IMG/VR virus record: IMGVR_UViG_2531839454_000020
DNA length: 34,734 nucleotides
DNA from: a virus
Lineage: Duplodnaviria; Heunggongvirae; Uroviricota; Caudoviricetes
Strand: one strand, 5' to 3'
Below are positions 33,331 through 34,005 of this stretch, one piece after another (position 1 is the first letter of the stretch; the number at the start of each line of letters is the position of its first letter). The notes under the pieces are model-generated. The model had not been told where the DNA came from and searched no databases. It saw only the letters and a list, made by a program, of their open reading frames with translations. Both the position numbers and the translations under genes were made by a program.

Positions 33331-33750
33331 TTAAAGAATTTCACGGCAGCTAATCAGGGGATAAGATGTATCACCTTTTTTAACATCAAATATAGGAGCG
33401 CCATCTACAGAATGCAGATATTTGATGTAAGACTTACCATCTTCGGAACCATAATATTCTTCTTTCTCGTTCTTATCTTCTTTCAGTTTCGGGCTTTTGA
33501 TTGTTTTATCAAATACCGGATCGTTGAAAGCAAATTGACTATTATCATCATTCACTCGAACCTTTACACCGATAAAACCACGGTATTTGCCAGACGGCGC
33601 ATGATAATAACGGTCGCCATCACTCAGGTAGCGTGTATCATCTCCTTTATATTCGAAGTAGGAATTGCACACATAATAGGTATAGGTATTAGCATTCGCA
33701 GCACCAACCAAACCCAGAGCAAGAACAACACCCGCGATAATCTTTTTCAT
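33331..33750 (-). CDS. secreted/periplasmic hypothetical protein (139 aa) with signal peptide
   Basis: MKKIIAGVVLALGLVGAANA signal-like N-terminus (no lipobox Cys); two Cys near the ends of the mature part. Confidence 0.55.
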   Translation of the reverse strand: MKKIIAGVVLALGLVGAANANTYTYYVCNSYFEYKGDDTRYLSDGDRYYHAPSGKYRGFIGVKVRVNDDNSQFAFNDPVFDKTIKSPKLKEDKNEKEEYYGSEDGKSYIKYLHSVDGAPIFDVKKGDTSYPLISCREIL

Positions 33751-33795
33751 AGTAGAATTTCCTCTTGTTATTTGAATTACGATATATTTATATCG

Positions 33796-33921
33796 TTAAA
33801 AGTTGATGCTAATTACCAGACCAAACACAACCGCACCAATCAAATCAATCCAGTTAATACACAATCCGCTATATTCTTTCTTGAATGTCTTGGATGAAAT
33901 GCCATCATGAAATTGTTTCAT
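33796..33921 (-). CDS. small membrane peptide (41 aa)
   Basis: MKQFHDGISSKTFKKEYSGLCINWIDLIGAVVFGLVISINF; GGTGAG SD; C-terminal TM. Confidence 0.35.
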   Translation of the reverse strand: MKQFHDGISSKTFKKEYSGLCINWIDLIGAVVFGLVISINF

Positions 33922-33924
33922 TGC

Positions 33925-34005
33925 TCACCCCATACTAACGACAAGACAAGAAAGACTAATCATAGTTGTGAGACTACCTCCCACGAATGAGATAAAAGCT
34001 AACAT
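33925..34005 (-). CDS. hydrophobic micro-peptide (26 aa)
   Basis: MLAFISFVGGSLTTMISLSCLVVSMG; GGAGA SD; its stop lies within the SD region of the next ORF. Confidence 0.3.
   Translation of the reverse strand: MLAFISFVGGSLTTMISLSCLVVSMG

Follow-up and report, generated by a model that had tools for sequence, protein, structure and literature searches.

Do two minute membrane-peptide genes and the gene for a secreted protein behind them, lying together at the integrase end of a prophage, form a single system, or are they neighbors with separate histories? The locus that raises this question spans positions 33,331 to 34,005 of a 34,734-nucleotide (nt) stretch of DNA (IMG/VR virus record IMGVR_UViG_2531839454_000020; the whole stretch is called the window here), which is a prophage of ~35 kb. 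A preliminary description of the DNA had placed a 26-, a 41-, and a 139-amino acid (aa) product in a recombinase operon and had compared the arrangement with superinfection-exclusion, receptor-masking, or envelope-modifying systems. The answer we favor, with a probability of roughly 0.6, is that the locus forms the accessory arm, next to the integrase, of a temperate phage that integrates in ycdX, and that the 139-aa gene is interchangeable, envelope-directed, moron-like cargo that is independent of the two micro-peptides (denoted micro1 and micro2). The three open reading frames (ORFs) lie on the minus strand as first reported, each with its own Shine–Dalgarno (SD) sequence, and the parts of the locus are as follows.

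34005..33925, minus strand: micro1, a 26-aa ORF (MLAFISFVGGSLTTMISLSCLVVSMG) for a predicted uncharged single-helix membrane peptide
33921..33796, minus strand: micro2, a 41-aa ORF (MKQFHDGISSKTFKKEYSGLCINWIDLIGAVVFGLVISINF) for a predicted tail-anchored peptide
33760..33795, minus strand: conserved cassette linker, consisting of the inverted repeat CGATATA-AA-TATATCG (33795..33780), AATTCAAATAAC, and the SD AAGAGGA
33750..33331, minus strand: the 139-aa cargo ORF, with its SD AAGAGGA at 33766..33760
33691..33750, minus strand: Sec signal peptide of the cargo (MKKIIAGVVLALGLVGAANA), with n, h, and c regions and an A-x-A site
33331..33690 (stop codon included), minus strand: mature domain of the cargo, 119 aa, 13.9 kDa, pI 5.7, with the C28/C135 pair and a KSPKLK loop
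34049..34029, minus strand: intrinsic terminator upstream of micro1 and after a 128-aa gene, a GC-rich 7-bp stem followed by a T-run
33316..33287, minus strand: closing intrinsic terminator, an 11-bp stem followed by a T-run, 20 nt 5′ of the recombinase start

Two features of the layout were only partly as first described. Overlapping SD and stop signals are present between micro1 and micro2, where the SD-like run GGGGTGAG shares bases with the micro1 stop and the micro2 start follows that stop after 3 nt, but micro2 and the cargo gene are 45 nt apart, with a 7-2-7 inverted repeat in the gap. Likewise, the recombinase does lie downstream on the same strand, but the terminators at 34049..34029 and 33316..33287 bracket the block, so that the term recombinase operon fits only loosely.

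The content of the slot between micro2 and the recombinase carries the argument. About 54 related loci were gathered from Escherichia coli genomes, IMG/VR, Logan/ENA assemblies, and metagenomes, and phages that are nearly identical elsewhere differ in slot content. Counting the 139-aa gene, there are at least six alternatives, distributed over the loci as listed.

Soluble barrel family (132-139 aa), which includes the 139-aa protein: 24 loci of ~54
Lipoprotein barrel (130 aa): 2 loci of ~54
81/82-aa protein: 14 loci of ~54
113-aa protein with an N-terminal transmembrane (TM) segment, together with an 81-aa protein: 5 loci of ~54
77-aa secreted protein: 3 loci of ~54
348-aa GIY-YIG-like nuclease: 1 locus of ~54
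Empty slot: 5 loci of ~54 (L034 and L036-L039)

The micro pair is thus found without the 139-aa family in 28 of the ~54 loci, next to other cargo (23) or none (5), and the peptides are therefore read as the constant backbone and the 139-aa gene as interchangeable cargo. This count bears directly on the three-part system that the preliminary description implied, in which micro1, micro2, and the 139-aa protein would be one envelope machine excluding superinfecting phage, like T4 Imm plus Sp. The genes are adjacent and on the same strand, micro1 and micro2 are coupled, the 139-aa family is seen nowhere but directly after micro2 in this slot, and the layout of membrane peptides plus a periplasmic protein recalls Imm plus Sp. 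Nevertheless, the loci with unrelated or no cargo, the discordant histories of cargo and flanks discussed below, and the 45-nt spacer, whose own linker and SD part micro2 from the cargo, make such a machine improbable. The pair itself can also be split, as the micro1-micro2 interval is a second insertion point, where several lineages encode a 62-aa protein or a secreted one of 75/76 aa.

The slot has conserved edges. On the left, the linker (C/T)GATATAAATATATCGTAATTCA...AAGAGGA is near-invariant between E. coli and Salmonella with any cargo (139, 81, 113, 27, or 348 aa) and is gone from the loci with an empty slot. Its inverted repeat has no second copy in the window and folds no better than shuffled sequence. 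The 81-aa, 77-aa, and 139-aa proteins begin with one and the same signal peptide, encoded by nearly identical DNA, and the 81-aa protein is predicted to be a helical hairpin despite sharing its signal peptide with a beta-barrel. On the right, the closing terminator is kept in all loci, with compensatory stem changes across genera (CCCCTA/TAGGGG, CCCCTC/GAGGGG, and CCCCTATCAT/ATGATAGGGG). Its loop, TTATAAT(A), is constant in the window and in L036, L039, L044, and L046, and the hairpin may serve beyond termination, for example as the -10 element of an integrase promoter or as a processing site.

Cargo and flanks appear, from their divergence, to have discordant histories. Between the window and L001, synonymous divergence (pS) is 0.56 in the cargo and 0.10 in the recombinase, while between the window and L030 it is 0.12 in the cargo and 0.62 in the recombinase. 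The proposed explanation is that the cargo would be exchanged through homologous recombination at both slot edges, the left being the linker (inverted repeat and SD, usually with the shared Sec signal peptide) and the right being the terminator. The cassette is also slightly AT-richer than its surroundings: its GC content is 37.5-38.8%, that of the window 41.6%, and that of the recombinase gene 43.4%. At third codon positions, GC is 33% in the cassette and 43% in the recombinase gene. The offset is modest.

The constant part of the arm would be micro1 and micro2, two translationally coupled small inner-membrane proteins. Both ORFs are, on the evidence of their sequence evolution, real genes. 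In essentially all of the ~54 loci, micro1 is kept as a 25-27-aa hydrophobic ORF (at least 11 distinct sequences) and micro2 as a 39-41-aa ORF (at least 14 distinct sequences). Between lineages with saturated synonymous sites (pS 0.5-0.86), the ratio of nonsynonymous to synonymous divergence (dN/dS) is 0.18-0.33 for micro1 and 0.10-0.30 for micro2, and the keeping of length and frame at such saturation indicates conservation beyond chance. In micro2, a serine has switched between the TCC and AGC codon families, one indel is of a single codon in frame (3 nt), and 15 positions are invariant, clustered in the N-terminal M[KR]xFHxGISSKTFK. In Salmonella-type loci, the two genes overlap by ATGA.

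Hydropathy agrees with the first report of two hydrophobic peptides. The micro1 product has a grand average of hydropathy (GRAVY) of 1.76 and zero charged residues, and its gene is preceded by the SD GGAGA (34017..34013), 8 nt 5′ of the start. The first 24 residues of micro2 are basic, and a hydrophobic C-terminal stretch covers residues 25-41. It is predicted that micro1 is a bare transmembrane helix and that micro2 is tail-anchored with its invariant N-terminus in the cytoplasm. Only 10 clusters of micro2 exist among 5.8 billion proteins, and of the 58 complete E. coli genomes that carry the stretch, most have “none” as the RefSeq annotation beneath the match. A scan of IMG/VR with a micro2 profile returned the same contigs as the recombinase searches, which confines the micro pair to this phage lineage. 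In 50,697 phage records, tblastn with the 139-aa protein and micro2 gave no genuine match.

The two peptides resemble small inner-membrane proteins of enterobacteria and their prophages in having fewer than 50 aa, a single TM segment, a prophage origin, and a record of being missed by annotation. They differ from the named ones in showing no sequence relation to them, in being a coupled pair, and in being confined to one phage lineage. DicB, for example, is a small protein of prophage origin that acts on phage receptors in the inner membrane (PMC6832061). A literature search on ycdX prophages and on the micro-peptide motifs found nothing relevant.

A different role for the micro-ORFs would be as regulatory leader peptides that tune the cargo or the integrase, or as a small toxin or holin-like module. 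Their position between a terminator and the downstream genes, always with this recombinase lineage, would suit a leader, and their strong hydrophobicity recalls type I toxins. Mere leaders, however, are not expected to be conserved at the amino acid level, as the dN/dS values, the serine switch, and the invariant 14-residue N-terminus of micro2 indicate these to be. A toxin is disfavored by micro1, which has no charged end of the kind typical of type I toxins, and by the Rfam scan, which matched no element and gave no antisense RNA signal. A holin might be sought because the endolysin has no adjacent one, but the pair lies 3.7 kb from the endolysin and is encoded antiparallel to the late and lysis operon, and a 92-aa protein with an N-terminal TM segment in the late operon is the better holin candidate. 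We regard these leader, toxin, and holin roles together as unlikely, and a holin role for the micro-peptides was judged unlikely in its own right on account of the opposite strand and the 92-aa late-operon candidate.

The upstream terminator hairpin, which separates micro1 from the 128-aa gene, is kept in E. coli relatives. It is absent from Salmonella-type loci, in which micro1 is translationally coupled to the gene upstream. Three further small or lytic features of the window can be noted beside the micro-peptides.

29752-30105, plus strand: M15-peptidase endolysin gene without an adjoining membrane protein gene
28204-28482, plus strand: 92-aa ORF with an N-terminal TM segment and a coiled coil, 1.3 kb upstream of the endolysin and the sole TM protein of the late operon; likely a holin or spanin component
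324-425 (33 aa) and 479-652 (57 aa, with a KKDTK tail), both plus strand: a pair of small, strongly hydrophobic ORFs at the other end of the prophage, lying within no large ORF

The cargo of the window carries a canonical export signal. Signal peptides were judged by rules that call for a basic n-region, a core of 10-15 residues, small residues at -3 and -1, and the presence or absence of a lipobox Cys at +1. The 139-aa protein conforms to signal peptidase I with MKK, the 15-residue hydrophobic core IIAGVVLALGLVGAA, and the site A-N-A|N, a pattern kept in all homologues, so that the cleavable signal peptide of the preliminary description is of the canonical Sec type by this rule-based check. 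It has no lipobox; its first Cys falls 8 residues past the cleavage site in the context YYVC. The two cysteines noted earlier, C28 and C135, are invariant across all family members, the lipoprotein branch included. The proposed course for this protein is export by Sec, cleavage by signal peptidase I after ANA, and folding in the periplasm to a small beta-barrel, in which a C28-C135 disulfide would probably staple the first and last strands.

Structure prediction, which the preliminary description had suggested for this protein, supports the fold part of this course. The AlphaFold2 model is confidently all-beta, with 11 strands, a mean predicted local distance difference test (pLDDT) score of 86.5, and values >90 over the mature part, and the protein is accordingly modeled as a small periplasmic beta-barrel of an orphan family. 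The family is small: its ~14 clusters (132-139 aa) were drawn from E. coli, Salmonella, and gut metagenomes. It shares the loop D-K-x-I-x-S-P-K-L-K and is under purifying selection (dN/dS 0.06-0.4). The earlier statement that none of the three proteins belongs to a recognized family agrees with Pfam, PHROGs, PADLOC, and NCBIfam, in which neither they nor the alternative cargoes have a meaningful match. The 139-aa protein has no significant match among Protein Data Bank (PDB) sequences, and phmmer against 1.84 billion representatives returned only the small family and two spurious repeat proteins. Three more family members came from a profile search, in which the 81-aa proteins also matched, though only by their signal peptide. 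With the barrel model as the query, Foldseek found nothing significant in PDB; in BFVD, it found a few matches at E<0.001, with TM-scores of ≤0.57, to uncharacterized phage proteins and annotated lipoproteins.

The lipoprotein branch is a 130-aa protein with the lipobox LTGC, found in the same slot of two metagenome loci (L056 and L057). It aligns with the barrel family in hhalign at 94% probability (E 1.4e-7), with both cysteines and KSPKL in register. The 130-aa protein is a true homologue, and the barrel therefore occurs in soluble and in lipid-anchored forms.

This duality raises the possibility that the 139-aa protein inhibits peptidoglycan hydrolases in the periplasm, in the manner of PliC/MliC or Brucella PhiA, and shields the cell from lysozymes, phage tail lysozymes, and amidases of the type VI secretion system. 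PliC and MliC are themselves split into soluble and lipoprotein forms, and they and PhiA are small periplasmic eight-stranded barrels. The barrel of the 139-aa protein is larger, with 119 residues against roughly 80-100, has extra strands, and does not conserve the motifs of those families; its SGxY-like stretch is not kept across its own family. The Foldseek search in PDB gave no significant match in support, the MliC profile of Pfam (PF09864) matched none of eight members at E<=10, and in hhalign against E. coli MliC, at a probability of 1%, only the signal peptides align. A link to MliC was rejected at the level of sequence on the last two results, and we consider a hydrolase inhibitor quite improbable.

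An envelope role is suggested more broadly by the company that the 139-aa protein keeps. Most alternative cargoes and extras are envelope-directed, being secreted proteins, lipoproteins, or an outer-membrane barrel, and the cargo may therefore be thought to act in the envelope. The extras in the same arm include a 105/106-aa lipoprotein of phrog_13472 (L004 5253-5570; L036 3417-3737), a 310-aa OmpW/OprF-like outer-membrane protein (L044 2031-2963), and the 75/76-aa secreted protein between micro1 and micro2, which has two cysteines (L039 3777-4004; L046 3110-3340). This bias, along with the soluble and lipoprotein forms of the barrel, points to action in the periplasm, with protection or exclusion as the most economical guess. 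The cargo would then work in the envelope of the infected or lysogenic cell, where it would most likely protect against incoming phages or agents that attack the envelope. Of the roles in the preliminary description, superinfection exclusion is plausible by analogy only, as is protection of the envelope.

The closest known class of genes is that of the morons, which are recognized as additions relative to close relatives, with their own terminator, an offset base composition, and their own promoter active in the repressed prophage (PMC3594210); HK97 gp15, lambda bor, and lambda lom are examples of such genes or of lysogenic conversion. The 139-aa cassette shares with them the character of an extra or replaced gene, since L034 and L036-L039 have nothing in the slot and 23 further loci have other genes there. 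It also shares its own conserved terminator (33316..33287), an offset though modest composition, an envelope product, and a place in the arm beside the integrase. It is unlike them in having no recognizable promoter of its own and in its mode of insertion, which is not ad hoc but into a fixed slot that has a conserved linker and in many cases the common signal peptide.

Superinfection-exclusion proteins that face the periplasm, small phage envelope proteins with stabilizing cysteines, offer a second comparison. T5 Llp and the Cor proteins of phi80 and N15 are outer-membrane lipoproteins that block FhuA, and T4 Sp and Imm bring about superinfection exclusion. Like Llp and Cor, the barrel has a lipoprotein version, but the lipobox is confined to the 130-aa homologue, while the 139-aa protein is soluble and not lipidated, and no relation in sequence or fold to Llp, Cor, Sp, or Imm was found. 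Masking of the receptor used by the phage’s own tail is also not favored. Tail-tip C-terminal alleles ~99% identical to that of the window occur with the 139-aa cargo (the window and L015) and with the 81-aa cargo (L008 and L029), and a 63% allele is likewise found with both. No covariation of cargo type with tail-tip allele was found in this indirect test of receptor linkage. The cargo thus does not track the receptor-binding end of the tail, which argues against a self-receptor block in the style of Cor or Llp.

Several points weigh against reading the locus as an arm with envelope-directed, moron-like cargo. The protective function is something we infer, by analogy, and the structural neighbors of the modeled barrel are generic. 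The slot is not strictly envelope-specific, because one cargo, the 348-aa nuclease, is cytoplasmic, as is the 62-aa insert. Expression from the repressed prophage, the classic hallmark of a moron, would be conjectural for the cassette, since no sigma-70 consensus promoter was found; the scan, which is blind to weak or alternative promoters, covered the minus strand from 33000 to 34734 and the host junction of L001. In the circular phage, a strong promoter at 2856..2828 may instead read the cassette across attP, which would make it an early gene. That promoter is near-consensus (TTGACA-17-TATACT, 11/12 consensus positions), lies on the minus strand, and points leftward toward the prophage end.

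A bolder reading assigns the micro-peptides a role of their own. The micro pair, the linker with its signal peptide, and the terminator would be a cassette-acceptor platform, in which the lineage swaps periplasm-directed effectors behind a fixed export signal. The invariant micro-peptides would then be a minimal inner-membrane device that every member needs, for example to block DNA entry or to modulate a membrane protease or divisome component. By analogy, such a platform might be likened to polymorphic effector/immunity loci, as a phage counterpart. We consider this rather unlikely, and more speculative still is a sub-case in which the conserved VKVRVNDDNSQFAFNDPVFDKT hairpin would mimic a similar segment of ExbD and hinder TonB-dependent uptake of phages or colicins. 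In the 139-aa protein, the most conserved stretch, VKVRVNDDNSQFAFNDPVFDKTIKS (residues 60-86; window 33490-33570), resembles the periplasmic VYLSVKADNSMFIGNDPVTDETM of E. coli ExbD. ExbD was the best PDB sequence match, but at E=0.3 it is not significant and is treated as chance.

With the locus read as an accessory arm carrying exchangeable cargo, what is new is an orphan family and two small-protein genes; the locus around them is of a familiar phage accessory type, though its cassette layout is unusually clear. The analysis adds two conserved small-protein genes that RefSeq mostly leaves unannotated and an orphan family of predicted periplasmic beta-barrels, soluble and lipid-anchored, that is confined to one prophage slot. 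It also provides a clear natural case of the reshuffling of exported cargo, in which one fold replaces another, unrelated one in the interval from a common signal peptide to a common terminator. Should the cargoes turn out to exclude phages or protect the cell, new envelope-level proteins against phages or toxins could be drawn from this one compact slot. Slot cargoes are present in pathogenic E. coli, enterotoxigenic strains included, and in Salmonella.

The wider setting of the arm bears out its description as a phage accessory region, for it is the prophage arm beside the integrase. The neighboring genes are as follows.

31588..33267, minus strand: large serine recombinase (integrase), with Resolvase, Recombinase, and Zn_ribbon_recom domains, phrog_95 integrase
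34063-34449, minus strand: 128-aa gene (phrog_14908), upstream context at the extreme prophage end
34462-34734, minus strand: 90-aa gene (phrog_6147), upstream context at the extreme prophage end
30846-31514, plus strand: GIY-YIG/T5orf172-like nuclease gene, convergent to the recombinase

The recombinase, for which RefSeq sets the start at MKTKLYS, is the constant neighbor downstream of the slot. The prophage region is present in 60 of 5,426 complete E. coli genomes, with 34 carrying at least 80% of a 3.2-kb query. All of the E. coli copies are chromosomal and interrupt ycdX next to the csg curli genes, and relatives in Salmonella and other enterobacteria are integrated at the same ycdX site, so that the lineage would be one that integrates in ycdX of E. 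coli, Salmonella, and their relatives. Isolated phages are distant relatives only (terminase identity ≤43%). The window terminates at the start codon of the 90-aa gene, ~40 bp short of the host junction. Every prophage copy splits the host ycdX and leaves ycdY-ycdZ without its upstream gene beside the csg locus (L001 9257-9598; L002 9103-9444; L006 3353-3748).

At this end of the prophage, the 128-aa gene is missing from some relatives and extended at the N-terminus to 145 aa in others. By their position, the 90-aa and 128-aa proteins are candidates for a recombination directionality factor. Genes for GIY-YIG/T5orf172-like nucleases of variable length are convergent to the recombinase in all relatives (also L031 578-1624 and L006 6479-7654), and one such gene sits in the cargo slot of L031. 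These genes resemble homing endonucleases and might drive local mosaicism. Finally, a scan of genome contigs with the recombinase returned a single 512-bp contig (JANCAF010000145.1), from an assembly of Actinacidiphila cocklensis; it is 99% identical to the recombinase of the E. coli prophage and is probably assembly contamination.

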